Positions 9,312 to 36,401 of a DNA stretch of 64,000 nucleotides are shown in pieces. The DNA comes from an uncultured Candidatus Poseidoniales archaeon (GTDB lineage Archaea > Thermoplasmatota > Poseidoniia > Poseidoniales > Thalassarchaeaceae). The position numbers and the translations under genes are program-made. Each line of letters begins with the position of its first letter. Positions within the stretch are counted from its first letter, which is position 1. The stretch covers positions 38,650-102,649 of the forward strand of contig CAWVXH010000002.1 of the NCBI GenBank assembly GCA_963934165.1. Reading direction: 5' to 3'. The notes under the pieces were generated by a model. It was not told where the DNA came from. It ran no database searches and saw only the letters and a program-made list of their open reading frames with translations.

Positions 9312-9485
9312 TCCTAGTTCAAACGCAACAATATCCAGTAATGATTGTTGGGGAACTTGTTTATCAATTTCAGATTGAAATTTGATAGTGGTTTTGAGAT
9401 TGTCTTTCTTTCACTTCCAAATTTTCCTCATAGAGCCCTTTGGAATACATCGATTATCTCAATTTTTCAAGCAATTAGAGGGGGG

Positions 9486-9516
9486 GCGCCACGGCGGGAG
9501 AATCCCACCGTGGCGC
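9486..9516 (-). promoter_or_regulatory. GC-rich hairpin between the binding-protein gene and the permease gene
   Basis: gcgccacggcgg-gagaatccca-ccgtggcgc forms an 11/12-bp stem. It sits in the 249-bp gap between the binding-protein stop and the permease start. Confidence 0.5.
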
Positions 9517-9560
9517 TTTACGTCCCATTACTCGATCAGGTTAGTTTCCTAATTTACTAA

Positions 9561-12500
9561 TCAAGCAGTTACAAGGCCGCCATCGCGGCTCCAGTATCGT
9601 GTGCAATCGAAGGAAACTGCTCCATCTGCTGCAACACTGAAGGTTCCAACACAATATCCGTTTCCTGCAACATCTCCAACTGCGTCAAATGTGTGAAGAC
9701 CACTTGCACCAACGAAGTTGTTACCTACTGCTGGGATGATCGCACCTAGTGGAGTTCCCGGAGGGCTCGCTAGTTGGGTAAATACTGAATATCCCATAAT
9801 GAGCATTGCATCGAAAGCTTCTGCTGTGTAAATTCCACCTGCACAATCAGGTATTTCACCGCAAATTGCTGCGAAAGCCATCGAGCGCTCACTAGGAACT
9901 GCTGATGCTGGCTTGGTTGCTACAACTCCATCGACAATAGAAGTATCAGCCATACCTGCTGCTAATCCTTCTTCAGCGACACCATCTCCACCGAAAATTA
10001 ATCCGGTGAATCCTTGTGCCGAAAGTTCTTCGACAAGTGCTGCACCATCAGCTGCGTAAGAAACTAGCATTACACTGTCACAGTTAGCATCCATAACTTG
10101 CTGAACTTGTGCAGTGAAATCAGTTCTTGTATCTTCATAACCAATCCTTGCACAAAGCACCGTTCCATCTTCTGTCCATGCTGCATCGAATGAATCAGCT
10201 AAGCCAGATCCGTAATCGTTAGTCATGTACAATAGAGCAACACTGGTGCCGCCATCAGCAGCAACAACGTCTGCGAGAGCTGGTCCCTGAATCGCATCGC
10301 TTGGTACAACACGGAAGAAGAGCGGGTATGCGGACGCATCGCTCAATCCTGGGTTGGTACTAGCGTAGGAAATCATTGGGATACCCGCCGCCGAAAGAAT
10401 ACCATTAGCTGCCATTGTTGCACCAGAACATGCTGCTCCGACAACTCCGACAACTCCTGCATCAATCAATGTCTGTGCTCCTGTTGCCGCAACGTCACCG
10501 CTGCAACCAGAATCAACCATTACTAATTCAAACTGAAGTCCTGCACCCCATCCACCGATATTCATCATCTCGAGTGCAATATTAGCTGCAACACCGAATC
10601 CAGGTGCATAAACTGCAATTGGCCCAGTCATTGGATTCAAGAAACCAATCTTAACAGTCATTCCTGTGAATTCAGTTTCCTGCATTCCTCCATCCAATGT
10701 CCAGTAGTCATAGCAACCGAAGTAAACATCGACTGAGGATAGAGCATCAAAGGTACAGAACTCAAATCCTGAACCAGCGACATCTCCATTCGCATCGAAT
10801 GTGTGGGAGCCGCTTGCACCTTCGTATGTGCCGATCATTCCCATGTGTTCTACCATATTTGCTCCATCTTCCATCATAGCAGCCTTACCCATAATCATCA
10901 CTGAATCATATGTTTCTGCTGTGTAAACTCCACCAGCACATTCTGCATCTGCAGCACAGCGCTCATTGAAATCTCCGAAAGAGGATGCTGCGCGAGACTT
11001 AACCGCGATTAATCCGTCTAGGATATATGGCGCGGCAGATAATCCAATTACTTCTTCAGATGCTAGAGCTTCCATACCGATAACTGGAATACCTAAACCA
11101 GCGAATGCCATTTGTTCTAGAAGAGCTAATCCATCATCAGTATAGCTGACGAGAACCATCGAGTCACAACCAGCATCTGCAATAGCCTGAATTTCTGCAG
11201 AGAAGTCCGTTTGCATTTCATCGTATCCGATTTCAGTACAAACTGAACCACCAGCACCAGCCCAATATCCGCCAATAACAGCGCCCATTCCGGCACCGTA
11301 ATCATTGGTCATGTAAACTAGAGCAGGATTTGCAAATCCTTCTGACATCATCAAAGTAACCATTGCTGGACCCTGAATTGTCGCAGGAGGAACTACTCTG
11401 TAGAAGTCCGGCGCCATGCTTAGAGCAGGATCTCGGCTAGTGGGGGAAATCATTGGGATTCCCGCTGCCGAAAGAATTGCATTCGCTGCGTGTGAAGCTG
11501 CGGAACAAACTGCTCCGATAACTCCTACAACACCTGCATCTGCCAATGTTTGTGCTCCGGTAGCTGCTGTATCACCGTTGCAACCGGAATCTGCTTCAAT
11601 TATCTCGAAGTTTCCGCCCATTGCGTTCAGATCAGCCACAGCCATGGAGGCCGCTTGAACTGCAGGTCCAATCAATCCAGCAACAGGGCCGGTTCTAGGA
11701 ATTAACAATCCAAGTTTTGTAGGCGGGTATGTGCAACTACCATCATTGGATGTCGCATCGGCGTCGTAGTTGACTGCATCCGAATCCATGCACCCATATG
11801 CATCGTTGCTTGCAACGCCTGCATAGTGGAATGCTATCTCATCAGCGATTGCGTTGCCGATATCGACATCGAAACCTTCTGCATTACCATCAGCATCAAG
11901 ATTCTCAAATGGAGGGTATGAAGTATCTGAGCAGAATTTTAGATTACCTGATTCTAGAACTTGTGTTAGTCTGCTACCTTCTGTTGCCATAGGGTATACT
12001 GTTGCTGTGTCTACGGTGCGGTCATCGGTTAGGACAACTGCGCCATCGAACCATGCACTGAAAATTAAATCATATTCTCCAGAATCAATTAGTGCAGTAA
12101 TTGCTACATCCAATGCGCCAAGAAGTTCTGAATCGCCATCATCGACAGCAAGCCCGAATGTCTCATCTGAGAAAGTAACCATTAGATCACCAGATAGTGC
12201 CATTACAGGAGAGTCTCCTATAGCATAATCTGCATCACCGTTACTGATTGATGCCGTTACTGACGGGAAGTCAGCGTATGCAACAATTGTTGCGTCTGGT
12301 AAATTTGCATTAGTCCAGATATCTGAAGTTGTTCCAGATTGGACTGCTACTCTTGTACCAGCAGCATTTAGATCAAGAGCATCAGATATCATAGCAGAAC
12401 CTGAGGCACCGATTACACCCTGGCTACTTGTGTAGTAACCACGTGTGAAATCAACCACAAGTTCTCTTTCATCGGTCTTGGTCATAGCAGAAAGGATTGC

Positions 12501-12797
12501 GTCACACATCTCTCCGTCGTTCAAGTTGGGGATAATCGGATCCCAGTCTGAAGTCACGAAAACTGCGTTGACATCGTCAGCGGCAGTTAGTGACCATTCA
12601 GGTTCCGGTTCGTCGTGCGTACACGAACCATCATCGGATGTCGCATCGGCATTGTAGTTGTTCGCAGTAGCGTCCATACAGCCCAATACATCTTCCGGTT
12701 CAGGTTCAGGTTCGTCTTCCCCGCCTAAGCAACCAGCGAACGCAGCCGCTAGCATACTTAGGGTCATTATCATTGCAATTATTTTCTTATTTTCCAT
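9561..12797 (-). CDS. tri-domain lipoprotein substrate-binding protein (PBP2-like domain plus two tandem LivK-type domains)
   Basis: Start taken at MENKKII (12797), which has a signal peptide and an AGC lipobox-like site. The listed ORF begins 21 codons earlier. Residues about 90-350 resemble polar-amino-acid PBP2 binding proteins. After that come two repeated LivK-like modules (DSGCNGDTAATGAQTLADAGVVGVIGAVCS and DSGCSGDVAATGAQTLIDAGVVGVVGAACS). Each is preceded or followed by a short two-Cys motif. Confidence 0.85.
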   Translation of the reverse strand: MENKKIIAMIMTLSMLAAAFAGCLGGEDEPEPEPEDVLGCMDATANNYNADATSDDGSCTHDEPEPEWSLTAADDVNAVFVTSDWDPIIPNLNDGEMCDAILSAMTKTDERELVVDFTRGYYTSSQGVIGASGSAMISDALDLNAAGTRVAVQSGTTSDIWTNANLPDATIVAYADFPSVTASISNGDADYAIGDSPVMALSGDLMVTFSDETFGLAVDDGDSELLGALDVAITALIDSGEYDLIFSAWFDGAVVLTDDRTVDTATVYPMATEGSRLTQVLESGNLKFCSDTSYPPFENLDADGNAEGFDVDIGNAIADEIAFHYAGVASNDAYGCMDSDAVNYDADATSNDGSCTYPPTKLGLLIPRTGPVAGLIGPAVQAASMAVADLNAMGGNFEIIEADSGCNGDTAATGAQTLADAGVVGVIGAVCSAASHAANAILSAAGIPMISPTSRDPALSMAPDFYRVVPPATIQGPAMVTLMMSEGFANPALVYMTNDYGAGMGAVIGGYWAGAGGSVCTEIGYDEMQTDFSAEIQAIADAGCDSMVLVSYTDDGLALLEQMAFAGLGIPVIGMEALASEEVIGLSAAPYILDGLIAVKSRAASSFGDFNERCAADAECAGGVYTAETYDSVMIMGKAAMMEDGANMVEHMGMIGTYEGASGSHTFDANGDVAGSGFEFCTFDALSSVDVYFGCYDYWTLDGGMQETEFTGMTVKIGFLNPMTGPIAVYAPGFGVAANIALEMMNIGGWGAGLQFELVMVDSGCSGDVAATGAQTLIDAGVVGVVGAACSGATMAANGILSAAGIPMISYASTNPGLSDASAYPLFFRVVPSDAIQGPALADVVAADGGTSVALLYMTNDYGSGLADSFDAAWTEDGTVLCARIGYEDTRTDFTAQVQQVMDANCDSVMLVSYAADGAALVEELSAQGFTGLIFGGDGVAEEGLAAGMADTSIVDGVVATKPASAVPSERSMAFAAICGEIPDCAGGIYTAEAFDAMLIMGYSVFTQLASPPGTPLGAIIPAVGNNFVGASGLHTFDAVGDVAGNGYCVGTFSVAADGAVSFDCTRYWSRDGGLVTA

Positions 12798-12975
12798 TGA
12801 GTATTCACCCTTCAGTCTCCTACGCGAGAAAGTATTTCTATTATAGACATTATTACGCAATTGTCAAAAAGGTGCTTTCTTAGGGTGATTGATTAAGGAA
12901 ATATCTATGTTTTAGATAGAAAAAGAGTTTTTCGACCCATCAAAGAAAATATCAAACAGAATTGTTCATGCGCTA

Positions 12976-14124
12976 GTGCCACTTCACAAGGTCATGAAAG
13001 ACACGCCGCTCGACTATGCCTCATCGGGCGTGGACATCGATGCAGAAGGGGCGGCGGTTGCAAGTTTAATCGGAGCATTGAGCCCATCTACCCGTAAACC
13101 CGGTGAATATGGTGCCCCTGTCCCATTACCTGGAGGATTTGGAGGAATTATCGAATTTGGAGATTCCTGCCTCGCCCTTGCCGCCGATGGCGTCGGATCG
13201 AAATTGATGCTCGCTAATCAACTCGGACGGTACGAGGGTGTTGGTATCGATTGTGTCGCGATGAACGTTAACGACTTACTTTGTGTCGGCGCAGAACCAC
13301 TCGCCTTCGTGGATTATGTCGCCGTGGTCAAAACCGACCCTGAAACTCATGCAATTCTCGGCGCATCTCTCGCTGAAGCTTGCAGACGCGCTCGTATCAC
13401 TCTCGCTGGCGGTGAAACCGCGACACTGCCTGGAATCGTAACAGAACTTGACATGTCTGGAACTGCCTTAGGCTGGTTCCCTAAAGGTGAAGCAATCACT
13501 GGTGAAAACCTCGAAGCTGGAGACCTTCTGATCGGTTTACCGAGCAGTGGGATCCATTCTAACGGTTACACATTGGTAAGAGCAATTCTCGAAAGAACAG
13601 GCTCTTCTCTAACCGAAGCTGCCCCATTCGATTCTACACATGCACCTCGTGAAATCGAGAGGTTTGAAGGAAATAACAGCACCTCTCGAGTAAGTTTAGG
13701 TGAAGTTTTGCTGAATCCTACAAGAATTTATGTCGACCCATTAATCGATTTAATCAAACAGTGTAGAGATGGTAATGGACCTTGTGAAATCAGTGAAATA
13801 AAAGCGATGGCGCACATCACCGGAGGGGGACTTTCAAACCTTCTTCGCCTACACAAAAGTTTGGGTTGGCATATCGAAAGCCCACTTCCTATCCCACCTG
13901 AATTCACTTGGTTGGCTGAACAAGGTTCTGTCGAAATTCGTGAGATGCATCGTACCTTCAATATGGGCCTAGGAATGGTTCTCGTAGTCTCCCAAAGTGC
14001 CGCTCAATCTGTCCAATCATGGATATCTGAGCGGCTGCCTGGTAGTCAGATAATCGGTGTCGTTAACGATGATGGAAACCGTGTGACTCACTTTAATTCA
14101 GAAGTGACTTTCGAACATTATTGA
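12976..14124 (+). CDS. purM: phosphoribosylformylglycinamidine cyclo-ligase (AIR synthase)
   Basis: YASSGVDIDAEG, GGFGG, DGVGSKL, GIDCVAMNVNDLLCVGAEPLAFVDY and LAGGETA are all canonical PurM blocks. Confidence 0.9.
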   Translation: MPLHKVMKDTPLDYASSGVDIDAEGAAVASLIGALSPSTRKPGEYGAPVPLPGGFGGIIEFGDSCLALAADGVGSKLMLANQLGRYEGVGIDCVAMNVNDLLCVGAEPLAFVDYVAVVKTDPETHAILGASLAEACRRARITLAGGETATLPGIVTELDMSGTALGWFPKGEAITGENLEAGDLLIGLPSSGIHSNGYTLVRAILERTGSSLTEAAPFDSTHAPREIERFEGNNSTSRVSLGEVLLNPTRIYVDPLIDLIKQCRDGNGPCEISEIKAMAHITGGGLSNLLRLHKSLGWHIESPLPIPPEFTWLAEQGSVEIREMHRTFNMGLGMVLVVSQSAAQSVQSWISERLPGSQIIGVVNDDGNRVTHFNSEVTFEHY

Positions 14125-14173
14125 GTCGGGCTTAGGTAGTCAATACCTTGTGTGATGGGCTTGTCGGAAGCCT

Positions 14174-15496
14174 ATGGAGAAACTCGCTGGTTGGCCAGGT
14201 GAGCTTCATCGAGAGGGACGGACATTATTCCGAATTTCGGATGGAGCTTCTCAGAAAGGAGTTGGTCCAGCAACAAAGGATTCGACTGTTGTCTTCTACA
14301 ATCCGGCGATGGCGGGTTCACGAACCCGCAGTGTGATTTTGATGCAAACAATCATCGAGTCAGGATATCTTGGTGAGAAGGAAATTTACGCAATTGATGG
14401 ATTGTCTGCTAGCGGATTACGGGCACGACGCTGGTTGAACGAATTGCCGGAAAAAATTGCAGCTCGGCTCGATGTTACAATTTGCGATATGGATGAAAAA
14501 TCACTCAATTGGGCAATGGCGACACATGAGGAATTTCCTCCAAACAAATTTGGAATTTTGAGGAAGAGAGTAGGTGATTTGCGCACAGCGGTACTCGATC
14601 ATGGTCGACATTGGGTCGATATCGACCCATTCGGCACACCGATGCCATTTCTCGATACCGCGATCCAATCATTAGCTCGCAGAGCGGTTATCGAAGTTAG
14701 TGCAACAGATTCGGCGGCATTGACTGGCTCATCAAAATCTGCACTACTCCGCCGCTATGGCGCTCGTGTTTTGACAGATGGGTTGTGCCATGATTCTGGA
14801 ATGCGGGTGATGCTTGCCAATATCGCTCGAATCGCAGCCAGCCACGACCGCTTTATTGAGCCGATTCTATCAATTTGGGATTCGCATCACCTTAGAGTTT
14901 CTGTTAAGGTTACGAAATCAATAGAAGGTGCAAATCGATTCGAAGAAAATATCGGTTGGAGAATCGCAAAACCTGTTGAATCAGAAGTATTGGTTTCAAT
15001 CAAAAATAATCTACATCCAAAATCGAATCTTGACATCTTACCAATGCATTGTTTCGTCCCATTGAGTCAACCTGTGGATAGTGGAGACAAGCGGATTTCT
15101 GGACCGATGTGGATTGGTCCAACCGGAGTGAGAGAAGTAATGGAGAATATTACTGAACAAGCAACATTTTCACTATCTTCTCCAATATTTCGAATAGATG
15201 ACCCCCTGGGGTGGAGTGAAAAAGAAATTGAACTAGAACAGCGAAAAATTTCAAGGAATGTGCGTTACATTTCAAGCGAAGCCACTGCGATTCATTCCCC
15301 GCATTTTATCCTCACCGATGATTTGGCAAGTTGGTTGAAAATCGGCTCACCTCCCAGTCCAAATATTATGGTAGAATTACTTGAAGAAAGGGGGCACTGT
15401 GCAGCTAGAGCTCATTATGCAAAACCTGCATTTCGAACCGATGCACCGTGGCATATTATTGTTGAAGTTGCAAATTCAATTCAGTCAGAAAGTTGA
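14174..15496 (+). CDS. trm1: tRNA (guanine26-N2)-dimethyltransferase Trm1
   Basis: VFYNPAMAGSRT, VDIDPFGTPMPFLDTAIQSLARR, VSATDSAALTG and CHDSGMRVMLANIARIAA line up with archaeal Trm1 (Pyrococcus-type VFYNPRM ... IDLDPFGSPMEFLDTA ... TATD ... CHEVGTRIL). Confidence 0.85.
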   Translation: MEKLAGWPGELHREGRTLFRISDGASQKGVGPATKDSTVVFYNPAMAGSRTRSVILMQTIIESGYLGEKEIYAIDGLSASGLRARRWLNELPEKIAARLDVTICDMDEKSLNWAMATHEEFPPNKFGILRKRVGDLRTAVLDHGRHWVDIDPFGTPMPFLDTAIQSLARRAVIEVSATDSAALTGSSKSALLRRYGARVLTDGLCHDSGMRVMLANIARIAASHDRFIEPILSIWDSHHLRVSVKVTKSIEGANRFEENIGWRIAKPVESEVLVSIKNNLHPKSNLDILPMHCFVPLSQPVDSGDKRISGPMWIGPTGVREVMENITEQATFSLSSPIFRIDDPLGWSEKEIELEQRKISRNVRYISSEATAIHSPHFILTDDLASWLKIGSPPSPNIMVELLEERGHCAARAHYAKPAFRTDAPWHIIVEVANSIQSES

Positions 15497-15529
15497 CTTA
15501 TTCGAAAAATTCCGAAGCGAATTTTCGAC

Positions 15530-16537
15530 TCATCCCCCGATATATGACATTTCGATTCGAGGTAATGACCTGGTTTCACTGGAGCGATTTTCGCTATAGC
15601 GGTCGTCACGACGCTGCCAAATCGCAGCAATGGCTTCATTCAATTCATCCTCACTAGTCTCACTCTGAATCAGAGCGCGAATATCATGCCCACCAGTAGC
15701 GAACAGGCAAGTTACCAATAGCCCGTCTGCAGACAAACGGATGCGAGAACAATTTTCACAGAAGGGTTCGGATACAGATGAAATAAATCCAATTTCTCCC
15801 GAACCATCAGAATGAACCCAACGAACTGCGACTTCGCTTGGATTCTCTGATTCAAGTGGAACTAAATCAAATATTGTTTTGAGATGAGAAAGAATCTTTT
15901 CTGAGGGGACAATCTGCCCTAATTGCCAACCATTTGTTCGTCCAACATCCATATATTCGATAAAACGAACAACAACACCTGTTCCACGAAAATGTGTGAT
16001 GAGTTTTTCGATTTCAGATTCGTTAACACCACGCTGGACAACACAATTGACTTTCACAGGAGACAAACCTGCCTCCCGTGCGGCATCTATTCCATCCAAT
16101 ACATCCTCAACCGGAATCGCACTATCTGTCATTACAGAATGAATATTGGGGTCTAAGGCATCCAAACTTACAGTCACACGAGACAAACCGGCTTCGCGTA
16201 AATTTTCAGCCTGATCTCGCAAAAGAGACCCGTTCGTTGTCAAAGCAACCTCAAGGCCGAGGGAAGATATTCGTCGGACCAAATCGGCTAAACCTGGCCG
16301 TAATAGTGGTTCGCCACCAGTAATTCGGACTTTTTCCAAACCAAGGGGAAGACAAGAGCGAACCACTTTTTCGATTTCTTCAAAGGATAATAGGGCACGG
16401 CGTGGAAGAAAAGTATGGCTTTCACCAAACCTTTCTCTAGGCATGCAATAACGGCAGCGAAAATTACATCTATCCGTAACCGAAATACGCAAATCTTTCA
16501 ATTGCCGGTCAAATACATCGAGCACGGTTGGCTGCAC
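15530..16537 (-). CDS. moaA: GTP 3',8-cyclase MoaA (radical SAM)
   Basis: CNFRCRYCMP radical-SAM cysteine triad. C-terminal second cluster FCENCSRIRLSADG. GG...L...TNG blocks are present. Confidence 0.9.
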   Translation of the reverse strand: MQPTVLDVFDRQLKDLRISVTDRCNFRCRYCMPRERFGESHTFLPRRALLSFEEIEKVVRSCLPLGLEKVRITGGEPLLRPGLADLVRRISSLGLEVALTTNGSLLRDQAENLREAGLSRVTVSLDALDPNIHSVMTDSAIPVEDVLDGIDAAREAGLSPVKVNCVVQRGVNESEIEKLITHFRGTGVVVRFIEYMDVGRTNGWQLGQIVPSEKILSHLKTIFDLVPLESENPSEVAVRWVHSDGSGEIGFISSVSEPFCENCSRIRLSADGLLVTCLFATGGHDIRALIQSETSEDELNEAIAAIWQRRDDRYSENRSSETRSLPRIEMSYIGG

Positions 16538-16587
16538 AACCTTGCCAACCGAATCAAGGCAATTAGTGTTACTCGATAAAAGACAGG

Positions 16588-17187
16588 TTGAAAAACGGCA
16601 GACTTCAGGGGAGGATGAGAATTATGTTGACTATCACCGACAAGGCTCGTGAGATGCTCGAACAATTCATTTCTCAAGCAGATGGTGGAAAAGACCTTGC
16701 TGTTCGAATTGAAATTATTGGCCGAGGTCCGAAAGGCTTCCAATATGATTTGCAATTGATTGAAAATAAAGATTTGAAGGATGACGATATACTGACAAAT
16801 TCAAGTGGTTTTGATGTGATAATCGCGCAAAGAAGCGTTCAATACATAGATGGAACAACTCTAGATTTCAAGGAGACACTGATGGGGGGTGGTTTCTCTT
16901 TCGAGAATCCCAATCCCCTCTGGATTGACGAATTATCCCAATCCGTAGCTGAAATTATTGAAGAGAAAGTGAATCCCGCTGTGGCTTCACACGGCGGACA
17001 TGTTGATTTTATCGGCATCAATGAGGGTAAGGCATTGATCGCCTTCGGTGGTGGATGCCAAGGCTGTGGTATGGCCGATGTGACTCTGAAACAAGGAGTT
17101 GAAGTAATGATAATCGAGAATGTACCTGGTATTACTGAAGTCGTCGATACAACCGATCACGCGGCTGGAACAAATCCATTCTACTAA
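16588..17187 (+). CDS. NfuA-like Fe-S cluster assembly protein (degenerate A-type domain plus Nfu domain)
   Basis: C-terminal Nfu motif GGGCQGCGMADVTLKQG. The N-terminal IscA-like domain lacks the cysteines. The true start may be the internal Met at 16624 (MLTITDK). Confidence 0.7.
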   Translation: MKNGRLQGRMRIMLTITDKAREMLEQFISQADGGKDLAVRIEIIGRGPKGFQYDLQLIENKDLKDDDILTNSSGFDVIIAQRSVQYIDGTTLDFKETLMGGGFSFENPNPLWIDELSQSVAEIIEEKVNPAVASHGGHVDFIGINEGKALIAFGGGCQGCGMADVTLKQGVEVMIIENVPGITEVVDTTDHAAGTNPFY

Positions 17188-27016: not shown

Positions 27017-27460
27017 TCACCTATACGACTTCTGCCACTTCTTCCGAGCGCCGCGACCCATTTGGTGCTTCGCTTCCTTTCGGCGTGGATCGTTAACTAG
27101 TAAACTACGGTCGAACCGTAGATATTCATCTCGAAGTTCTTCATCAATACCCTCAGCACCGCCGTTATAATGGACTAATCCGCGGGCGATTGCTGTACGA
27201 ATCGCATCGACTTGTCCCATCTGGCCACCGCCTTCTACATTGACGATAACGTCAACATCAGCTAAGCGGTTCATACCTTCAGCAATTTGAACCGGCTCAA
27301 GCGCCTTACGACGAGCAAGGCTTGGCTCCATGATGTAAATTGGTTGGCTATTAACACGAACACGGCCTTGTCCTTTTCGGACGGTTGCTCGAGCGATCGC
27401 AGTCTTCCTCTTTCCACTGGTATTTACAGCGGTTTTCCTCTGCTTCTTTGCCATATTCAT
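27017..27460 (-). CDS. rps9: 30S ribosomal protein S9 (uS9)
   Basis: [14 protein letters not shown] ... C-terminal KKWQKSYR. Start taken at MNMAKKQ. A 4-nt ATGA overlap with rpl13 supports this start. Confidence 0.9.
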
Positions 27461-27942
27461 TGACCTCCCCAACGTGTTGCATCCACACCGAGTGAGGATG
27501 AAATTTCGCCCAATCGAACGAACTTCAATGGTAGTGGGCGATTTAGATGAGTTGTGTCTCCCCATGCGTGGCCGTCAGGCAATTCCTCTCCAGAGAGGTT
27601 TGCTGGCTGACCGATAAGTACACGAAGGTCCCTTACTGCATTTCGACCACTGCTATTCTTCTGATACGGCAGCATTCCACGGACAGTGCGCTTCATGATT
27701 TGGTCAGGCATTCTTGGGAAGAACGGCCCCTTACGAGGATGGTTCAACTTGTACTTGAAATCGTAATCTGCGAAAACCGTCGTTTTGGGTCCCGAAACGA
27801 TTGCGTGTTCTGCGTTCACAACGATAACTCGCAGTGGGCTTCCAGCCTTTCGCGCGGAAAGTAATTCCTTTGCAACATGGCTAGCCAATCTACCGAGAAC
27901 CTTGTCGGTTGCATCGTAAACAAGTGTTCCAGCTTCAGCCAA
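27457..27942 (-). CDS. rpl13: 50S ribosomal protein L13 (uL13)
   Basis: [14 protein letters not shown]... and [12 protein letters not shown] blocks are present. Confidence 0.9.
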
Positions 27943-28300
27943 GGATTCTCACCCCCGAGCCTTCTGGGTTTTCGTTCATCAATTCACGGATCGTGATTAC
28001 ACGCCCGCCTGCTTCTTCAATTTTAGAGCGGGCTCCAGAACTGACACTGTAGGCGGCGACGTTAGGCTTTCCAACCACATCACCGCTACCGAGCAACTTG
28101 CCTGGCACGAGGACTGTGTCCTCTTGCGCAGCATAGCGCGATAGACGGCTGAGGTTTGGTTCAGCCCAGTTGCTGCGACTGGCTTCCAATCGCATAGCAA
28201 CGTCTCGCCATAGTGCAGAACCGGTAGACCTGCTCTGTGCTCTCAAATCACCGATTAAGGCGATAAGGGCAGCGTTGGTCTTTCTCGTATTCTTTATCAT
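27935..28300 (-). CDS. rpl18e: 50S ribosomal protein L18e (eL18)
   Basis: 121 aa with the NTRKTNAALIALIGDL ... SRYA... pattern of archaeal L18e. A GGGAG sits 8 nt upstream of the ATG. Confidence 0.85.
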   Translation of the reverse strand: MIKNTRKTNAALIALIGDLRAQSRSTGSALWRDVAMRLEASRSNWAEPNLSRLSRYAAQEDTVLVPGKLLGSGDVVGKPNVAAYSVSSGARSKIEEAGGRVITIRELMNENPEGSGVRILG

Positions 28301-28448: not shown

Positions 28449-31400
28449 TCATAAGCTGAAGCCGTCGTTCTCATTTTCTTCATCAATTCCAGCAATTCTT
28501 GTGTTACCTTCAGAATCGATGAACTCACCGGCTTTCACACGCGAGCCATAAAGGGTCGATTCATTAGACGATGTTCGGTTCAACATACTCTCCCCGAGAG
28601 CATTGCTTAGATGATTGATAAGCGCCTGTAGAGCTGCAATTGCTCGATCCCTTTGATCCGCCCCGATTTCGTGGTCTGAATATCGCGCTTCTTCAAAGAT
28701 TGAAAACAATGTATCCAAATCTTCAGGTGGCATTATTCCTCCAAGCATGGCATTTATTGCATCCTCAAATTCACGAGTTGTTTCATAGACTTTCTTCATA
28801 GCTCCACGGCTGCGGAAGAAACGAACTAAATCCTTGTAACAATTGAAAATTGTCTGAATATAATCATTCGATGCTTTCAATGACATCAATGAATCTGTGA
28901 GGATTCCACGAATTATTTCGATTCGGCGGCGCTCATTGTAATTTCGATACATTATCGCACCGATTAGGACAGCGAATGCTAGAGCAATTCCAATAACTGT
29001 CAAGACCTTGAACGTGAAGAAATTCGCGTTTTGTTCAACAAGAGGCTCACCGAGATAAATCACCGGTGTGCTGTTAAGGAACTCTTCTTGGAAAAACGAC
29101 GATTCTTGGAAATGAATCAGAACTCGCCATTTGCCATTCACAGCAGTAATATCGAGCTCTCCAGGCACTTCTTCTCCGGTGTAAATAAAGCTGAAATTCG
29201 CCTCACCATGCTCATTTGTCACAGCGTATTCAACATTATTTGTTTCCCATCCTGTGCCATTCCAATACTGAAAGGTGAAGATAACAGTTTCACCTTCAAC
29301 TGAAACATCCAAACGGTCTCGCAAAATTGCCACGGCCCCAGCGACTTCATCACCGATCTGGTAACCCAATGGATTTGACCAATGGTTCTTCAGCAAAATA
29401 TCAACCTTGCTTCTGACTAGAACTTCGACATCTTGGAACGAACCATTGACGACTGGGGTCGTCTCAGCCCGGCAACCTCCGGGTAATTCCTTAGTCGGCT
29501 CATATGCAACTCTAATCGTCCTGAAGCCCTCTAACTGGTTTCCGTTTGGCTCAACACCACGGCGGCTTGGATTATCATCCGGATCGCCGGAATACCATTC
29601 AATTTCACCAGTGCCATCACGAGTGATGGCAGTTGCGATAGGACGGGTATTAGTTTCAGGGTCGAGGTAGATGTTGAGACACTTTCCTCCGACTGGATTA
29701 CCATTGACTTGAGTCAACATTGCATCGATATGGAACGATTCCTTTAGGTAAAGAACTGGGAAAACAGTTCCGTTTTGGAATTGATATGTGTCGACATCAG
29801 TACGGAATGGCCCTACTTCTTGGAAGGTCATTGTAGAATTAGAAAAGACAGGGAAGAACTTCGTTAAACTCGAATTTTTATATCGATATTGATCTCCGGT
29901 TTCATATGAAAGGAAATTCACAGTTACCTTCGCTTGACCTGCTTGAACGTCATTTAGTGGGCAAATTACATCGAACATGCCATTGATGTCAGTTATATCA
30001 CCTTGGCAAGATTTTACGCCTAAATCAGAGCCGACCATTTCGTATTGAACCTGGATTGCTCGGTTCGATAGATTCGAGCCAAGCTCATCGATTAACTGAC
30101 CGGTAACAACCATCGGTTTATCGATAGCTTGGCCAGTAACTGGGTCAATTTCAGAGGTGTAAACAATCTGATCGTCAACAGAAAGCGTGGTGCGGCCAAT
30201 CAGGCTGAATCCACGCTCATCGTGACGGAAAATCTTTCGATAATGATCGCTGTTGAGAATTTGGTCGCAAGGATCCCAAGCACCTGAAATTCTCAACATT
30301 TCCTCATCGAGAGGTTCACAACCTTCATGGGGAAGGTTTTCTGCGAAACGAAGGATGACATTGACTGGTCCAAATCCGTCAGGAAGGAAGGAATTAGGGT
30401 CATCTCTGAGCAATTGTGGATCTAACAACATTCTGTAATTAATTGAACCCGCATTAGGGCAAAGCGTCTCAACGATTTGCCTATGAATGCGTTGTTCGAA
30501 ATCGACGCCTTCAAGAATCACTAAAATTTCTCCGCCATTTTCATCACATCCATCGAGGAATTCGCCTTTATCCTTGATAGCGGCGGTTCGATTATCGTCT
30601 GTTACCTGAGCACTGAATTCCCAATAATCTCCACTCGAAAGACGATTTTCTGTCGTACTTTGGAGAGACACAAATGTTCGAGAAACAACCCAGAGGTTGA
30701 TTTCGTGAGCACTGCCTTGGCGATATGTGTCGCCTGGATATGTGTAACTTAGAGTGAAATTACCGAGTTGATGCATTTCATCAATTGTCAAATTGACTTG
30801 AAGAACACCGTTATGATCGGTTATCGCTATATCGCTAGTTCCGTCTGCAGACCAAGTGAAATTCACTGGAGCATCGCGAACAGGCTGATACGCATTGTCG
30901 ATGAGCCGTGCCTCAATTGTTGTATTTTGTCCTCGATAAAGACGTGGTATCAGATTCATTTGGAAATCGGTAGTACCAATGACTGAGATGTTCACATATG
31001 CACCTGTCGGCGCGAGAACATTCGATTGATTTCCAGTAAAGTAGAAATTCGAATTTGTAAAATCTGCACGGATTCCAAATACGCCCGCTGCATATTGAGA
31101 ATACCAGGTCCAGTTGTAATCGAATACTGCTTCGCCGTTCACCATATCTGGAGCACGCGCAAATCCAGTCTCTTGGGAACCTGCGAAAACACCGTTGTGA
31201 TCTACATCAACCTGTAGAGCCATAGGGTCGTGAGGCCATGCGGTCATAGTTCGGTTCCAAACCGTTCCAATAATTCTGAACGTTTCTCCTGTGAACATTT
31301 CTGGTACAATTTCACATCTCGCATCGCTTTCCGGATCTCTTGGGTCAATCGGTCCACATGGTGGAACGTTGAAATCCCCCCCATTTTGCATTGCGATGAA

Positions 31401-34400
31401 CCAATGAGTGCCATTCGAAGAGAGGAATGGGCGTAATCTACCAGACTCACCCGTCAATCCTTCAGGCGTACCATCCCAGAGCATAGCATATGGTTTCCCA
31501 AGACTTTCTGTACCGAAATCAAGGCCTGCATTAGCCAAGGACGGGGAGTGGAATAATGCTCGCCATGCTCCGAAAGAAGAGCCGGTGAATTGAGTTGAAT
31601 CCCAAAAGTAAACTGGCCGGATGGATGGGGTTATCACATCTGCTTCGATATACATTCTATGCATTGATCGGATCGCGAATGAATCTGTTTCATCGCCCTC
31701 TAGATATGGCCAAGGCCATTCTGCACCTAAATCGGGTCGAGACATACCAATGAAAAGATAGTCGCCAATCGGTAAACTGGTGTTTGTATATTCATATATT
31801 CCAATCATGCTGTGTGATTTTGAAGTGTTATCCCAAACAATTTCCTCATAAGCACCAGGAACTTTTCCTACTCCATTATCAATTGTTGAATTCCATTGAA
31901 CCTGTTTCCAAATACCTTGGCTTCCGCTCGATTGAACAAAGGAGAGTGAAACCCACCCTCCTGAATCAGATCGATAACCGTAGCCATAACCATCGAACAC
32001 AGTAGGATGAGTGGCATTACCAAATGGGCCACCGTGGACGGTGAACGAAATCGGTGCATGTGAGAGTCTGTTGTCAAATTTACCTCTCTCCCAATCTGCA
32101 GTATAGTGTACCTTGTAATCGATGAAGAGTGGCTGTTCATCACTACGGAAATATGTCCATGCAACATAATCAATTGTTGTGTTCGCTCGGACTTCGGTTG
32201 GAACCGGTTCTGTTGCAGCACCATCGTGAATGAACATTTCAGTTACTTCTGCATATACATTATAAGTCAAATTAGAACCGACTGTCAAATCCTCTGGGAA
32301 GAGGAATTGACCAACCACATAATTACCGTTCTCGTCGGTAAGAACATCGATTGTCTCAAGAGCAGTTGTACCATTACGAGCCCAATCAATATGGATTTGA
32401 ACGGGCAGATTTGGGGCTGGCATGAAGACACCCTGCTCAGGATCTAGCCAATTTACAGTACCATTGAACTTGACAGCATAACGATAATCCAGCCACATTA
32501 CTTCTGGGACGGTTAGTGTAATTCTAGTAGGTATTTTATCATCTTCATCTAAGATGCCATCATTGTCAGAATCCCAGTCAGAAGTATTTCCATCCTCTTC
32601 CTCAAACTGATCCCAATCCGTATCTGTGCGATTATCGGTATCGTCATCTTCATCGATTGCATCTGGGCCGGTTTGAGGATCTGTTGGATTAGCAATACCT
32701 TCGCCGCCTCCGAAATCATCATGATCCCATGGATTAGTTGATTGATTATTGAATCGAGATGGCCAAAGCATAACTTCGTCAGCATCTTCCATTCCATCTG
32801 AATCATCATCCAAGTCAATATCATCTCGCAACCCATCATTATCGTGATCCCATGCTGAAATTAGAGGAGTCGCTGTAGCCAATTCGAGAGTGTTGACTCG
32901 CCCATCCCCATCCCAATCATCATCAGCCCAGTTCAATATTCCATCATTATCGTGATCCCAAACAAATTGTTCTTCTCCGACGAAACAAAGTAGTTCCTGG
33001 TCTGCATCGAGAATTCCATTGTTATCATCATCTGGATCCTCGCCATCCGGAACACCATCGTTGTCATTGTCGACATCGTAATACTTCGGATGTAGTAATC
33101 CTTGCCCTAGTATTCCAACATCCCAAACAGCTTGGTACCATCCGTCGTTATCCGGGTCGGTATCTGTCCCATCATCATCATTGTCATCACAATTTGAACC
33201 GATGAAGAAATTGCCAGCCGGCTCGGTATTAGCATCGTCATCATGGTCATCATTTGTGTCAACTTCGAAATAATCCCAGATACCGTCATTATCATCGTCG
33301 ACATCCCAATGATCGAAAACATTGTCGAAATCATCGTCCAAGTCTGCTGTATCATTGAACATACATTGTGGGTTCATATTTCCTGAAACGGGTGCTCCGC
33401 AATCATCATCTGGATCGACGTCATTATTGAGTAAATCAGCCTTTTCATCGGGGAACCAATTTGCATTTGAATCAGAATTCCACTGGAAAAAGCCGTAGTT
33501 TAAGCCAACGTAAGCAATCCACAAATCTCGGTTATTTGCTATTTGATTGTATGTTACGGCAGAGCTTGGGCTAGGATTACTCCCTGGGTCGAAAGTAAAC
33601 CAGAAGCAATTCTTGTTACATGTCCATTGCCCCTGAGAATTACTGCCATTATATGGACCATCATCATATTCTGAATCTGGGCGAGAACTGTATGGATATG
33701 TGTAAACCAATTGGCCTTGATTGGTTGAACTTGGGCTAATAATCGGTGCTCCGTAGAGCCATGCATAGAACAAACCGCAAACGTGTTCCTCAGCTAATCC
33801 TGCCATAAATGCGAGGAAAAGGGAAGAGCCACATTCATTATCATCAAAAGTACCACCAAATTTGATGTCATTAACGTCGAGTTGCCCATCATTACCTTCA
33901 TCCTGATCCCACCAATCAGGCAGTCCATCTCCATCTTGATCGATATCGATTCCGTTGATTAGAGAATCTCCATCAGTATCTATATCAAAGAAATTGCCGC
34001 CATTGAAAGCACTCCAACGTTGAATAACATGCCAATAAAGTTCTGGGACCTTTCCGCTATCATCAGGTGAGACTGCCGAATCATATCCATTGTAATTCAA
34101 AATAAATCCATCTTCAGAAGTGAATGGATTAAACATCCATGATTGATTCCAATAGAAGTTATGGGCGATATCGTGTGCATATATCTGGCCATCATTCGAA
34201 CCATCGAGCAAATCACCATCGTCAGTTGGATAAGTCGAATCAAAAATATCAGTAGTGTCGAAGTCTTGAATTCCACAATTTCCATCATCTGGGTCGTAAT
34301 AATCAGAAATTCCATCATTATCATCATCCCAATCCTCATCATTCTGTAATCCATCGCCATCGATGTCTGTGTCGAGATGGTTAGGTCCGTCGTCTCGATA

Positions 34401-36401
34401 GAGCGAACCATTCAACAAATGCATGTCATTGTCATCATCGAAATCACAATTATCATCCATATCGAGCCAATCTAGAATCCCATCATTATCATCATCGACA
34501 TCATCCCAATTATTGATTCCATCACCATCCCAGTCATTAAAACCAGTATACGATTTTCTCAATAAGTAACAATTGTCATGAGGATTCTGTGGATTAGGAT
34601 TGGTAAGGCTTGGGCAATCCCAGCCATCTACGGTGTCCTGGTGAACATTTGGGAAGATATCAAGTTCGTTGATTATTCCATCATTATCCAAATCCCAAGG
34701 TTCGTCGTTTGGATCAAGGGCGGGTGCCCCGACTGGATTGTCAGGAAATGGAGTTCCTCCCATATCTGGGTCGAGCCAATCCCATACCAAATCGTAATCT
34801 TGGTCGATGACTCGATAGCGGTCATCATCTGCATCACGATCATAATCTAGTTCACAATCGATTCCCGGGATCTCGATTGGGCCGGACACCGGTAAATCAC
34901 CAACCCCATCTCCATTGGTATCGACTTGATGGCAACGATCAGGAATTCCATCATTATCATCATCGACATCATACATATCGGCCAAACCGTCGTTATCATC
35001 ATCGGTATCCGAAGAATCTGGTGAGCCGTCATTATCATTGTCTGGATCGATGAAATTTGGAATCCCGTCACCGTCTAAATCACCGTCGACAATATAGCTA
35101 AATGATTGCTCGCGGGGATGCCAAGCCATTTCTCTGTCAACGAAATCAACGCCTCCAACATATTGAGAGTAAGTCCGTAAATTAGCTGTTGAATTTACAT
35201 TAATTGACCCAGTCATTGTTGAGTGGATTGTACAATCATAGCCTAAAGTTCCTGCCGTAGCAAAGGTCATTGAAAATGTCCCACTAGGTGCAATATTACC
35301 ACTATCGAATGATCCTCCGATGCTTTCAGTAACTGTATGATCTGTGGTATCATCATTCGTCCAGACGATTGTGTCACCCACATTGATATTGATATTTCTT
35401 GGAGAAAAACCAGAACTAGTTATCGAAACGTGATGCACTTGGGCAGAATGCCAATCTACTGCAGCTGACCAATTTGCTGCAACATTTGTGATATTTCCGG
35501 AACGAGTTGAATCCCAAGGGTGTTCATCCCATAGATCTATTACTCCGTCACCATCATCATCCAAATCAAAATAATCAGCATCTCCATCACCATCAAAATC
35601 ACATGGCCAAGTGAATTGATCAATTCGTCCATCGTTATCATCGTCTTCATCATAAGAACCTCGACCTGAACCATCAATATCTTCATCCGGGATTCCATCA
35701 TTGTCGTGATCGTAGGGATTCTGGTCAATTCTGTAACCATTTCCAATTACTAAACCCGTCCAAGGGTGAACGGTATTCGATTGAACATAACGATCTGAAC
35801 TGACATTTTGCGGATCCGCACCTTGTGAATAATCGATTGGCCCTTCTAGAATTCCGTCGTTATCATCATCCCAATCGAATTCATCTTGAATTCCATCATT
35901 ATCGTGATCGTAAGGATCGGTCCCATAGCAGCCATCGAAACGCTCGATTAAATCAGCGATACCATCGTTATCATCGTCTAAATCATACAAATCTGAGATG
36001 CCATCGTTATCGTGATCTTTGGTATCCGTCTCTTCAAGGAAAAATCCATAACTCGGATCCAACGCAAGGGCGTCACGGTCACTTATCTTCCCATAAACTG
36101 CCATCGGATCATTATAAAACGGATCGGTAAAGGTTGGATCATTAAAGCTGTTTTGAGCAGCAGGGTTACTTACTCCATCTCCAGTTACGGGACCAGATGC
36201 TGTGTTAATTTGTTGATATGATGTACGCTTTTCGGTAGGTTCCCACTCAACATCATTTACCTCTTCATATGAATCAAAATCTTGTAATGAATACATTTGT
36301 GTGCTAAACAACATCAAAAATACCATCAAGACTGCTGTAATTCCTTTTTTGGTATTTGCAATACCGAATCCATTACTGATTTTACCTAACATCGTAACCA
36401 C
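28449..36401 (-). CDS. giant (2650 aa) type-I membrane cell-surface protein with thrombospondin-type-3-like Asp-rich calcium-binding repeats and an embedded cupredoxin domain
   Basis: N-terminal signal/TM. Dozens of DxDxDGxxDxxD repeats (DHDNDGIPDEDIDGSG, DDDNDGILDWLD and so on). The mid-section is a beta-rich NxT-studded region. A single C-terminal TM (FTFKVLTVIGIALAFAVLIGAIMY) precedes a roughly 170-aa cytoplasmic tail. Confidence 0.85.
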   Translation of the reverse strand: MVTMLGKISNGFGIANTKKGITAVLMVFLMLFSTQMYSLQDFDSYEEVNDVEWEPTEKRTSYQQINTASGPVTGDGVSNPAAQNSFNDPTFTDPFYNDPMAVYGKISDRDALALDPSYGFFLEETDTKDHDNDGISDLYDLDDDNDGIADLIERFDGCYGTDPYDHDNDGIQDEFDWDDDNDGILEGPIDYSQGADPQNVSSDRYVQSNTVHPWTGLVIGNGYRIDQNPYDHDNDGIPDEDIDGSGRGSYDEDDDNDGRIDQFTWPCDFDGDGDADYFDLDDDGDGVIDLWDEHPWDSTRSGNITNVAANWSAAVDWHSAQVHHVSITSSGFSPRNININVGDTIVWTNDDTTDHTVTESIGGSFDSGNIAPSGTFSMTFATAGTLGYDCTIHSTMTGSINVNSTANLRTYSQYVGGVDFVDREMAWHPREQSFSYIVDGDLDGDGIPNFIDPDNDNDGSPDSSDTDDDNDGLADMYDVDDDNDGIPDRCHQVDTNGDGVGDLPVSGPIEIPGIDCELDYDRDADDDRYRVIDQDYDLVWDWLDPDMGGTPFPDNPVGAPALDPNDEPWDLDNDGIINELDIFPNVHQDTVDGWDCPSLTNPNPQNPHDNCYLLRKSYTGFNDWDGDGINNWDDVDDDNDGILDWLDMDDNCDFDDDNDMHLLNGSLYRDDGPNHLDTDIDGDGLQNDEDWDDDNDGISDYYDPDDGNCGIQDFDTTDIFDSTYPTDDGDLLDGSNDGQIYAHDIAHNFYWNQSWMFNPFTSEDGFILNYNGYDSAVSPDDSGKVPELYWHVIQRWSAFNGGNFFDIDTDGDSLINGIDIDQDGDGLPDWWDQDEGNDGQLDVNDIKFGGTFDDNECGSSLFLAFMAGLAEEHVCGLFYAWLYGAPIISPSSTNQGQLVYTYPYSSRPDSEYDDGPYNGSNSQGQWTCNKNCFWFTFDPGSNPSPSSAVTYNQIANNRDLWIAYVGLNYGFFQWNSDSNANWFPDEKADLLNNDVDPDDDCGAPVSGNMNPQCMFNDTADLDDDFDNVFDHWDVDDDNDGIWDYFEVDTNDDHDDDANTEPAGNFFIGSNCDDNDDDGTDTDPDNDGWYQAVWDVGILGQGLLHPKYYDVDNDNDGVPDGEDPDDDNNGILDADQELLCFVGEEQFVWDHDNDGILNWADDDWDGDGRVNTLELATATPLISAWDHDNDGLRDDIDLDDDSDGMEDADEVMLWPSRFNNQSTNPWDHDDFGGGEGIANPTDPQTGPDAIDEDDDTDNRTDTDWDQFEEEDGNTSDWDSDNDGILDEDDKIPTRITLTVPEVMWLDYRYAVKFNGTVNWLDPEQGVFMPAPNLPVQIHIDWARNGTTALETIDVLTDENGNYVVGQFLFPEDLTVGSNLTYNVYAEVTEMFIHDGAATEPVPTEVRANTTIDYVAWTYFRSDEQPLFIDYKVHYTADWERGKFDNRLSHAPISFTVHGGPFGNATHPTVFDGYGYGYRSDSGGWVSLSFVQSSGSQGIWKQVQWNSTIDNGVGKVPGAYEEIVWDNTSKSHSMIGIYEYTNTSLPIGDYLFIGMSRPDLGAEWPWPYLEGDETDSFAIRSMHRMYIEADVITPSIRPVYFWDSTQFTGSSFGAWRALFHSPSLANAGLDFGTESLGKPYAMLWDGTPEGLTGESGRLRPFLSSNGTHWFIAMQNGGDFNVPPCGPIDPRDPESDARCEIVPEMFTGETFRIIGTVWNRTMTAWPHDPMALQVDVDHNGVFAGSQETGFARAPDMVNGEAVFDYNWTWYSQYAAGVFGIRADFTNSNFYFTGNQSNVLAPTGAYVNISVIGTTDFQMNLIPRLYRGQNTTIEARLIDNAYQPVRDAPVNFTWSADGTSDIAITDHNGVLQVNLTIDEMHQLGNFTLSYTYPGDTYRQGSAHEINLWVVSRTFVSLQSTTENRLSSGDYWEFSAQVTDDNRTAAIKDKGEFLDGCDENGGEILVILEGVDFEQRIHRQIVETLCPNAGSINYRMLLDPQLLRDDPNSFLPDGFGPVNVILRFAENLPHEGCEPLDEEMLRISGAWDPCDQILNSDHYRKIFRHDERGFSLIGRTTLSVDDQIVYTSEIDPVTGQAIDKPMVVTGQLIDELGSNLSNRAIQVQYEMVGSDLGVKSCQGDITDINGMFDVICPLNDVQAGQAKVTVNFLSYETGDQYRYKNSSLTKFFPVFSNSTMTFQEVGPFRTDVDTYQFQNGTVFPVLYLKESFHIDAMLTQVNGNPVGGKCLNIYLDPETNTRPIATAITRDGTGEIEWYSGDPDDNPSRRGVEPNGNQLEGFRTIRVAYEPTKELPGGCRAETTPVVNGSFQDVEVLVRSKVDILLKNHWSNPLGYQIGDEVAGAVAILRDRLDVSVEGETVIFTFQYWNGTGWETNNVEYAVTNEHGEANFSFIYTGEEVPGELDITAVNGKWRVLIHFQESSFFQEEFLNSTPVIYLGEPLVEQNANFFTFKVLTVIGIALAFAVLIGAIMYRNYNERRRIEIIRGILTDSLMSLKASNDYIQTIFNCYKDLVRFFRSRGAMKKVYETTREFEDAINAMLGGIMPPEDLDTLFSIFEEARYSDHEIGADQRDRAIAALQALINHLSNALGESMLNRTSSNESTLYGSRVKAGEFIDSEGNTRIAGIDEENENDGFSL
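35187..35444 (-). other. amicyanin/plastocyanin-like type-1 copper (cupredoxin) domain inside the giant protein
   Basis: Residues about 320-405: NVGDTIVWTNDDTTDHTV ... GTLGYDCTIHSTMTGS. The His ... Cys-x2-His-x2-Met ligand spacing is identical to amicyanin (CTPHPFM). Confidence 0.6.

Follow-up and report, generated by a model that had tools for sequence, protein, structure and literature searches.

What purpose does a type-1 copper site serve on the surface of a marine archaeon? The question is raised by one gene in a 64,000-nucleotide stretch of DNA (here called the window) from an uncultured Candidatus Poseidoniales archaeon of the family Thalassarchaeaceae, a member of Marine Group II (MGII; GenBank assembly GCA_963934165.1, contig CAWVXH010000002.1, positions 38,650 to 102,649). 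A first-pass annotation, made from the letters of the window and a list of its open reading frames (ORFs), described the product of this gene as a 2,650-amino-acid (aa) calcium-repeat surface protein with an embedded blue-copper domain, and proposed that it could mean extracellular electron transfer or copper sensing. The ORF exists as described, and both the MGII host and the picture of a giant, Asp-rich, and probably calcium-binding surface protein hold up under comparison with databases. The two proposed functions found no support in our analysis. We favor, at a probability of roughly 0.6, a reading in which the cupredoxin is an accessory β-sandwich module, probably copper binding in this genome, that is dispensable for the core envelope or adhesion role of the giant protein.

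The Cupredoxin Domain and Its Relatives

Residues 322-404 form a genuine amicyanin-like cupredoxin with a complete set of ligands, as judged from profiles, alignments, and a predicted structure. Scanned alone, the domain matched the Pfam family Copper-bind (PF00127) with 28.3 bits against a cutoff of 21.2 and narrowly missed the cutoff of Cupredoxin_1; within the whole protein, the Copper-bind score was 19.8 bits, just under the cutoff. The amicyanin, halocyanin, and plastocyanin models of NCBIfam ranked highest, all of them far under their equivalog cutoffs (30.5 bits against 110.2 for the amicyanin equivalog TIGR02657). The best match among Protein Data Bank (PDB) sequences was the C-terminal cupredoxin of entry 9CCK (E = 1.2e-12), with 5FC9 and then many amicyanins (about 1e-7) ranked next. 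The four ligands named in the first-pass annotation (His355, Cys390, His393, and Met396) were aligned in register in these comparisons, and the loop that carries the last three was also in register with the CTLHPWM loop of 9CCK. An AlphaFold2 model of the domain, built from an alignment of 15 orthologous domains, reached a predicted local distance difference test score (pLDDT) of 91.5 and a predicted template modeling score of 0.82. Foldseek matched this model to 9CCK (40% identity), 5FC9, amicyanin, and plastocyanins, each with a probability of 1.00, and the superposition on amicyanin gave a root-mean-square deviation of 1.4-1.5 Å with a template modeling (TM) score of about 0.76. These results bear out the blue-copper domain that had been placed at about residues 320-405, along with its expected likeness to plastocyanin and amicyanin structures. 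The multicopper oxidase Nmar_1354 of N. maritimus carries the 9CCK domain as a "dangling" cupredoxin, which both crystallography and spectroscopy found metalated, with His2Cys and axial Met ligation (PMC11761707). Because the domain studied here is 40% identical to this solved and metalated homolog, the module of this genome very probably binds copper as well. We rejected chance as the source of the ligand motif: shuffling the protein 5,000 times produced a C..H..M pattern in only 39 cases, and the motif here is part of a confidently predicted cupredoxin fold.

The closest characterized relatives are instructive for both what they share with this domain and what they do not. Amicyanin, the pendant domain of Nmar_1354 (9CCK), and Nmar_1307 (5FC9) all have the cupredoxin fold with the short Cys-x2-His-x2-Met loop, and the 9CCK domain too is appended to a larger extracytoplasmic archaeal protein. 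In contrast to amicyanin and 9CCK, the domain here is internal to a 2,650-aa nonenzymatic protein, is often ligand-less in orthologs, and lacks a methylamine dehydrogenase or multicopper oxidase partner, with no copper, oxidase, methylamine dehydrogenase, or other redox family found among the genes of the window scanned against Pfam. An exhaustive HMMER search of 1.84 billion representatives with this cupredoxin subtype (E <= 1e-3) recovered 28,951 proteins. The top matches are 300-3,670 aa long and contain 3-12 cupredoxin stretches; most of them have N-terminal signal-like segments and Cys-x2-His-x2-Met loops. These tandem multi-cupredoxin secreted proteins, known from metagenomes, share the subtype signature GDTVxWTNxDxxxHTVT...FDSG...C-x2-H-x2-M. 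They differ in being cupredoxin arrays without calcium repeats (among 70 inspected, only one protein showed a DxDxDG motif, and just a single copy), whereas the present protein holds a single copy within a giant that is otherwise not cupredoxin. Given these matches, it is common, as far as sequences show, for large extracytoplasmic proteins to carry type-1 copper modules. What is new is a variant of this known arrangement.

The claim that such a feature had gone undescribed can be kept in part. That the cupredoxin is a module within a giant envelope protein goes undiscussed in the searchable papers, but the subtype occurs in tandem in the large secreted proteins just mentioned and the gene itself has been labeled before. 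In IMG, the name "plastocyanin" is attached to protein clusters P0001, P0005, and P0018, the first of which is 100% identical to the giant protein and is present on metagenome contigs of 134 kb and 69 kb. Damashek et al. (2021) list an ortholog as gene 515 of the genus-O1 metagenome-assembled genome SIMO Bin 19-2 (9053..16976; 7.9 kb; 148 nt from rpl18e), with the label "Plastocyanin petE" and a Big_1 match. In that study, this "plastocyanin" is named among genes with higher transcription when O1 was active (a log2 fold change of 1.94 at an adjusted p of 0.08), with transcripts about ten-fold below those of the adjacent rpl18e and about 100-fold below those of proteorhodopsin, and the architecture of the gene goes unremarked. 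The "plastocyanin" names and these transcripts indicate that the cupredoxin had already been picked up by automatic pipelines and that an ortholog is expressed in situ. The supplement of the same study (Damashek et al. 2021) contains gene 1221 of SIMO Bin 19-2, a 777-aa "halocyanin" that is also labeled Beta-Ig-H3/fasciclin and adjoins the proteorhodopsin gene. If the halocyanin label corresponds to a real cupredoxin, this gene, absent from the present window, would be a second MGII cupredoxin fused to an adhesion-type module.

Distribution of the Insert and Retention of Its Ligands

A homolog search with the whole protein found 328 relatives, 120 of which were listed. The listed relatives are mostly 2,500-2,700 aa long and 51-100% identical, and those with names belong to Thalassarchaeaceae, Poseidoniaceae, and Poseidoniales. 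Across 11 representatives of both families, only three large internal indels were found: the cupredoxin, a Gly-rich insert of 79 aa in one Poseidoniaceae ortholog, and an additional calcium loop of 45 aa in Poseidoniaceae. The cupredoxin was detectable in 16 of the 120 listed ortholog clusters and absent from the other 104. In the alignment it stands as a clean insertion of about 100 aa with conserved flanks on both sides. Cluster P0007, which aligns to 85% of the query with 75% identity, does not have it, nor do many other Thalassarchaeaceae or any aligned Poseidoniaceae-type sequence. The Gly-rich insert of about 79 aa (GGTGYVTANGVEATGSGADLLVDIVATAGAVTSVTVNDGGRGFTAGDVVTIAGGNSGATIDV), carried by P0077 / P0116 (Poseidoniaceae; locus L003), falls at about query residue 507. 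Because this second lineage-specific insert lies in the same calcium-repeat half as the cupredoxin, the distal region of the protein may be a favored insertion site.

The copper site is distributed more narrowly than the insert that houses it. Half of the 16 insert-bearing cluster representatives have all four ligands and half do not. P0002, with an overall identity of 77%, no longer has Cys, His, and Met, or three of the four ligands; P0004 has kept its Cys, with Gln and Phe replacing His and Met. A scan of GTDB species representatives with residues 226-500 found a relative in 310 genomes, and the best 80 of these were taken for a ligand census. All 80 bear the insert and, where named, belong to Thalassarchaeaceae (including MGIIb-O1, Thalassarchaeum, and N1). 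The ligand set is complete in 31 of them, partial in 2, and lost in 47 (about 60%). The first-pass annotation had itself named orthologs without the ligands as the outcome that would speak against its proposal, and that is largely the outcome observed. The degenerate loops are of several unrelated types, and in some of the 80 genomes the first His is gone as well. Stepwise loss can be followed in examples such as SCLFHQTMTG to SCLFQQ-FTG and ECQIHPAMTG to ECLVNSSYTG. The hits of a separate homolog search with residues 226-500 were for the most part short fragments, but the search added ligand states, together with small bacterial calcium-repeat/cupredoxin proteins that are taken up below.

Trees of the 80 Thalassarchaeaceae species (loci L007-L086) gave different histories for the domain and for its surroundings. 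In the tree of flanking sequences, copper-type inserts are scattered and ligand state needs at least six changes. In the tree of the domain core, from which the ligand loop was excluded, copper-type domains cluster together with three state changes, and recent ligand losses (L042, L074, and L084) are nested within the copper-type clade. This discordance may reflect cassette exchange by recombination between lineages, or it may be tree error. The ratio of nonsynonymous to synonymous substitution rates (dN/dS; Nei-Gojobori, moderately diverged pairs) was 0.135 for ligand-complete and 0.136 for ligand-less domains, with 0.03-0.05 for the flanks, values that are indicative only because the pairs are not phylogenetically independent. 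Within that limit, the cupredoxin fold is under purifying selection with or without its ligands, and this selection is more relaxed than in the remaining protein. Since dN/dS is equal in the two classes, the ligand-less copies are not decaying.

Readings of the Copper Site

We regard the cupredoxin as an accessory module and not as evidence for surface electron transfer because it is an optional insert and about 60% of the species that carry it are ligand-less. Copper chemistry does not appear to be the purpose of the giant protein, since the ligands are mostly lost, the domain is mostly absent, constraint is equal in the two classes, and no partner genes lie nearby. On this reading, a core and vertically inherited giant envelope glycoprotein of Poseidoniales would have received the cupredoxin of about 100 aa in a linker between calcium-loop blocks, in one part of Thalassarchaeaceae. 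Because the in-frame fold is under purifying selection regardless of the ligands, the role shared by all copies would be that of a β-sandwich spacer or interaction unit in the distal stalk. Copper binding would be an optional extra, with the site retained solely in some lineages.

A number of points weigh against this reading. Type-1 copper sites are, to our knowledge, electron-transfer sites. Core identity is 60% among copper-type domains and 46% among ligand-less domains, with flanks similarly conserved, although these pairs share the nonindependence of those used for dN/dS and are likewise indicative only; the same caution limits the argument from equal constraint. The four ligands also persist in 31 species despite about 40% divergence of the core. 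The better-conserved copper-type cores and the persistence of the ligands together suggest active maintenance of the copper site where it survives, for some function other than scaffolding. Another point comes from two small proteins, P0373 (L006:368-1285) and P0376 (L005:8001-8942), which resemble the first 400 or so residues of the giant in that a hydrophobic segment at the N terminus is followed by about 190 aa of DHDNDG-type repeats and then by a cupredoxin with all of its ligands. They differ in being only 305-313 aa long and in ending at the cupredoxin or a few residues past it. Their layout hints that a calcium-rigid tether and a cupredoxin may form a functional unit. P0376 lies among bacterial genes, with an HU protein and a response regulator encoded nearby, and a second cupredoxin gene directly adjoins that of P0373.

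The alternative that survives best takes these points further and makes the copper-type insert a dedicated redox module, a tethered, single-electron, halocyanin-like respiratory or extracellular shuttle that would be held at a distance set by the calcium-rigid linker and would serve an oxidase or an external substrate. The type-1 site of this genome is complete and its loop has the amicyanin length, Thermoplasmatota are without c-type cytochromes and blue copper proteins have been proposed as their carriers, and the O1 ortholog is transcribed along with proteorhodopsin and halocyanin. The recurrence of the anchor/calcium-repeat/cupredoxin layout in P0373 and P0376 and the better conservation of copper-type cores can be counted on the same side. 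We nevertheless consider a redox module unlikely. Of the 80 insert-bearing species, 47 are ligand-less and 2 more partial, the domain is absent from most orthologs, and dN/dS is the same with and without ligands. Oxidase, copper chaperone, and redox genes are absent from the window, and a carrier fixed in a 2,650-aa envelope protein would be unable to diffuse between partners.

The accessory-module reading has also to be set against the proposal that the copper site is a decaying relic, the leftover of a captured cupredoxin that is neutral everywhere and simply not yet lost in this genome. The repeated and stepwise ligand losses described above speak for such a relic, and the equal dN/dS of the two classes can be read in its favor. 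It is improbable in view of the retention of four ligands in 31 species whose cores have diverged to about 60% identity, and of the slower evolution of copper-type cores relative to ligand-less ones. About as improbable is a more specific proposal, in which the copper-type insert would be a surface redox center (for example, a tethered electron carrier or an oxidant- or metal-handling site) that gives certain MGIIb (O1/Thalassarchaeum) lineages a niche-specific capacity and is swapped as a cassette; the clustering of copper-type domains in the domain tree, against their scatter in the flank tree, speaks for it. Were this doubtful proposal true, the copper/no-copper polymorphism would mark ecotypes of an archaeon that ranks among the most abundant in the ocean. 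A copper sensor that relays ectodomain occupancy through the single transmembrane helix to the cytoplasmic DUF4129 domain is highly improbable: the architecture alone (an extracellular metal site, one transmembrane helix, and a conserved cytoplasmic domain) speaks for it, whereas the helix and DUF4129 tail are found in all orthologs, most of which have no cupredoxin or only a ligand-less one, the membrane helix is some 2,000 residues away from the site, no signaling output domain or regulator adjoins, and type-1 copper sites are not known to act as sensors.

The Giant Protein and Its Neighborhood

The accessory-module reading leaves the main role of the protein to the remainder of its sequence, the features of which are collected in the table below. 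Public gene calls take the ATG at 36392 as the start, three codons after the GTG, which gives a protein of 2,647 aa. The N-terminal hydrophobic segment is also kept in the aligned orthologs. The ectodomain is very acidic, with 359 Asp and 118 Glu residues (477 acidic) against 31 Lys and 78 Arg (109 basic), and it contains 37 N-x-S/T sequons where 21 are expected. Both the sequon excess and the acidity fit what would be expected of an archaeal surface glycoprotein. The first-pass annotation was right about the single transmembrane helix and close on the length of the tail (about 170 aa), which it had called unassigned; the tail contains a DUF4129 domain (37.1 bits against a cutoff of 24.8, E = 3e-9, by Pfam) on the C-terminal side of the helix, and the same domain is precomputed for most orthologs. 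Every ortholog has this tail but only some have the copper site, which makes a sensing role by way of DUF4129 unlikely. Literature searches on the function of DUF4129 and on an MGII giant or S-layer protein gave nothing relevant. A C-terminal transmembrane anchor and sequon enrichment are compatible with a lattice-forming S-layer protein, but genes for such proteins rank among the most highly expressed, and this role seems unlikely given the modest transcript levels of the ortholog relative to rpl18e and proteorhodopsin.

Features of the giant envelope protein gene and the adjoining genes (positions in the window)
Feature	Residues	Position	Strand	Basis and remarks
Giant envelope protein gene	1-2650	28449..36401	(-)	2,650-aa ORF read from GTG
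N-terminal hydrophobic segment, ITAVLMVFLMLFSTQMY	21-37	36291..36341	(-)	Signal peptide or uncleaved anchor; read from sequence
Asp-rich DxDxDG calcium-loop region, broken by the cupredoxin insert	129-1283	32553..36017	(-)	Motif count
Cupredoxin (type-1 copper) domain, lineage-specific insert	322-404	35190..35438	(-)	Profile, PDB search, AlphaFold2, Foldseek
N-terminal copper ligand codon, in DHTV (from residue 354)	His355	35337..35339	(-)	Aligned with amicyanin His53
Ligand loop Cys-x2-His-x2-Met, YDCTIHSTM (from residue 388)	Cys390, His393, Met396	35214..35234	(-)	Aligned with amicyanin Cys92, His95, Met98
Conserved, mostly β ectodomain half	1296-2461	29019..32516	(-)	Alignment and low-confidence AlphaFold2 model
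Single C-terminal transmembrane helix	about 2466-2485	28947..29006	(-)	Hydropathy scan
DUF4129 (PF13559)	2521-2592	28626..28841	(-)	Pfam; within a predicted cytoplasmic tail of about 165 aa
rpl18e-rpl13-rps9		27017..28300	(-)	Gene identification; directly downstream of the giant gene after a 148-nt gap; synteny kept

The protein was first described as built from DxDxDG calcium-binding repeats along its extracellular region. The repeats are real, but all 34 motifs sit in residues 129-1282, which leaves the C-terminal half of the ectodomain without any. Shuffling the repeat region 2,000 times with its composition preserved gave a motif count of 1.25 +/- 1.1, with a maximum of 8. The longer form DxDxDGxx[D/N] accounts for 24 of the 34 motifs and DxDxDGxxDxx[D/E] for 15, and a spacing of 13 residues recurs, with 13, 23, and 13 as the first spacings. 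Thrombospondin type-3 repeats have motifs of 13 and 23 residues that alternate. The likeness to this class of DxDxDG loops (including TSP3_bac, PF18884) lies in the consecutive DxDxDGxxDxxD loops and the recurring 13-residue spacing; the difference is that Cys residues are few here, so that the thrombospondin type-3 disulfide pattern is missing. No Pfam match to TSP_3 (PF02412) or TSP3_bac was obtained with the whole protein at E <= 0.1 or with residues 105-302 or so at E <= 1, and the calcium-repeat region had no significant match among PDB sequences. "Thrombospondin" genes are widespread in Poseidoniales, where they have been put forward as adhesion candidates (Rinke et al. 2019). Membership among the RTX adhesins was rejected, as the giant protein has 0 matches to the GGxGxD nonapeptide motif. 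The protein may still be compared by analogy with adhesins such as MpIBP and LapA, which it would resemble in being a huge, acidic, calcium-stiffened, and extended surface protein with distal lineage-specific modules. It differs from them in having its own C-terminal transmembrane helix as an anchor, in lacking an outer-membrane plug, and in being strongly conserved and syntenic rather than hypervariable.

The membrane-proximal half has a normal Asp content (residues 1296-2460 or so) and a mean column identity of 67% across both families. An AlphaFold2 model of residues 1296-2462, built from a nine-sequence alignment, had a pLDDT of 52, and only residues 1805-2430 or so reach 60-85, all of them in β structure. 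Foldseek aligned this model with the arrays of macroglobulin (MG) domains in complement C3/C5 and α-2-macroglobulin over about 700 columns (E of about 1e-14) at a TM score of about 0.1. Pfam gave weak matches to Big_1 and MG4 (17 bits for MG4 against a cutoff of 24.7), and a search with the C-terminal 1,363 residues against PDB sequences had no significant match. The likeness to α-2-macroglobulin and C3 thus consists of the alignment to strings of MG domains and the weak MG4 match. Membership in the α-2-macroglobulin family was rejected, given that the giant protein has no CxEQ thioester motif, that MG4 is below its cutoff, and that a TM score of about 0.1 comes from a low-confidence model. 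Because the model is poor, we read the matches only as a string of β-sandwiches; residues 1805-2430 or so look like a series of macroglobulin- or Ig-like domains, with no homology implied.

Assembled from these parts, the predicted layout of the protein would be a signal or anchor at the N terminus, EF-hand- or thrombospondin-type-3-like calcium loops over about 1,150 aa, conserved β-rich domains over a further 1,150 aa or so, a transmembrane helix, and the cytoplasmic DUF4129. Seawater contains Ca2+ at about 10 mM. The Asp loops would be calcium loaded and rigid in seawater, giving an extended surface structure that may serve in adhesion or envelope organization.

The giant gene keeps company with conserved genes. 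The order of the giant gene, rpl18e, rpl13, rps9, and rpoN is common to Poseidoniaceae contigs and the Thalassarchaeaceae source contigs, and the ortholog in SIMO Bin 19-2 likewise stands before rpl18e, rpl13, and rps9. The window as a whole is an MGII housekeeping stretch with MCM, TFB, NAD-dependent DNA ligase, PAC2, class II ribonucleotide reductase, a β-oxidation cluster, and an amino-acid ABC transporter. Some of these neighbors are unusual in their own right. The ABC transporter is fused and oversized, with a 1,292-aa permease that has two BPD_transp_2 stretches and a 1,099-aa solute-binding protein (5433-9311 and 9561-12860, both on the minus strand); the solute-binding protein combines SBP_bac_3 with two Peripla_BP_6/ANF_receptor stretches, and two ABC ATPase genes lie at 3929-5433. 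A 1,130-aa ORF at 40924-44316 (+) has zero Pfam matches, is also called on the source contigs, and may be another large MGII protein. A PKD-domain protein of 398 aa at 20270-21466 (-) is likely a further surface protein. The barrel of the 1,218-aa class II ribonucleotide reductase at 55950-59606 (+), which ends in a C-terminal TSCPD domain, is matched in two stretches, and this split could mean an insertion such as an intein. Two genes of the PAC2 family (proteasome assembly chaperone-like) lie less than 7 kb apart, at 17188-17958 (-) and 23613-24419 (+).

MGII archaea, abundant but uncultured, have a cell surface about which next to nothing is known. A core envelope protein family of about 2,600 aa can now be defined in them, encoded beside ribosomal protein genes. 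The "plastocyanin" of MGIIb is an optional module of this giant protein and not a soluble electron carrier, and metabolic readings in which the gene so named is counted as a redox protein need correction. The orthologs also provide a natural allele series, in which three or more ligand losses are recent and nested within the copper-type clade; this series can be used to ask what purpose a type-1 copper site serves at the cell surface.

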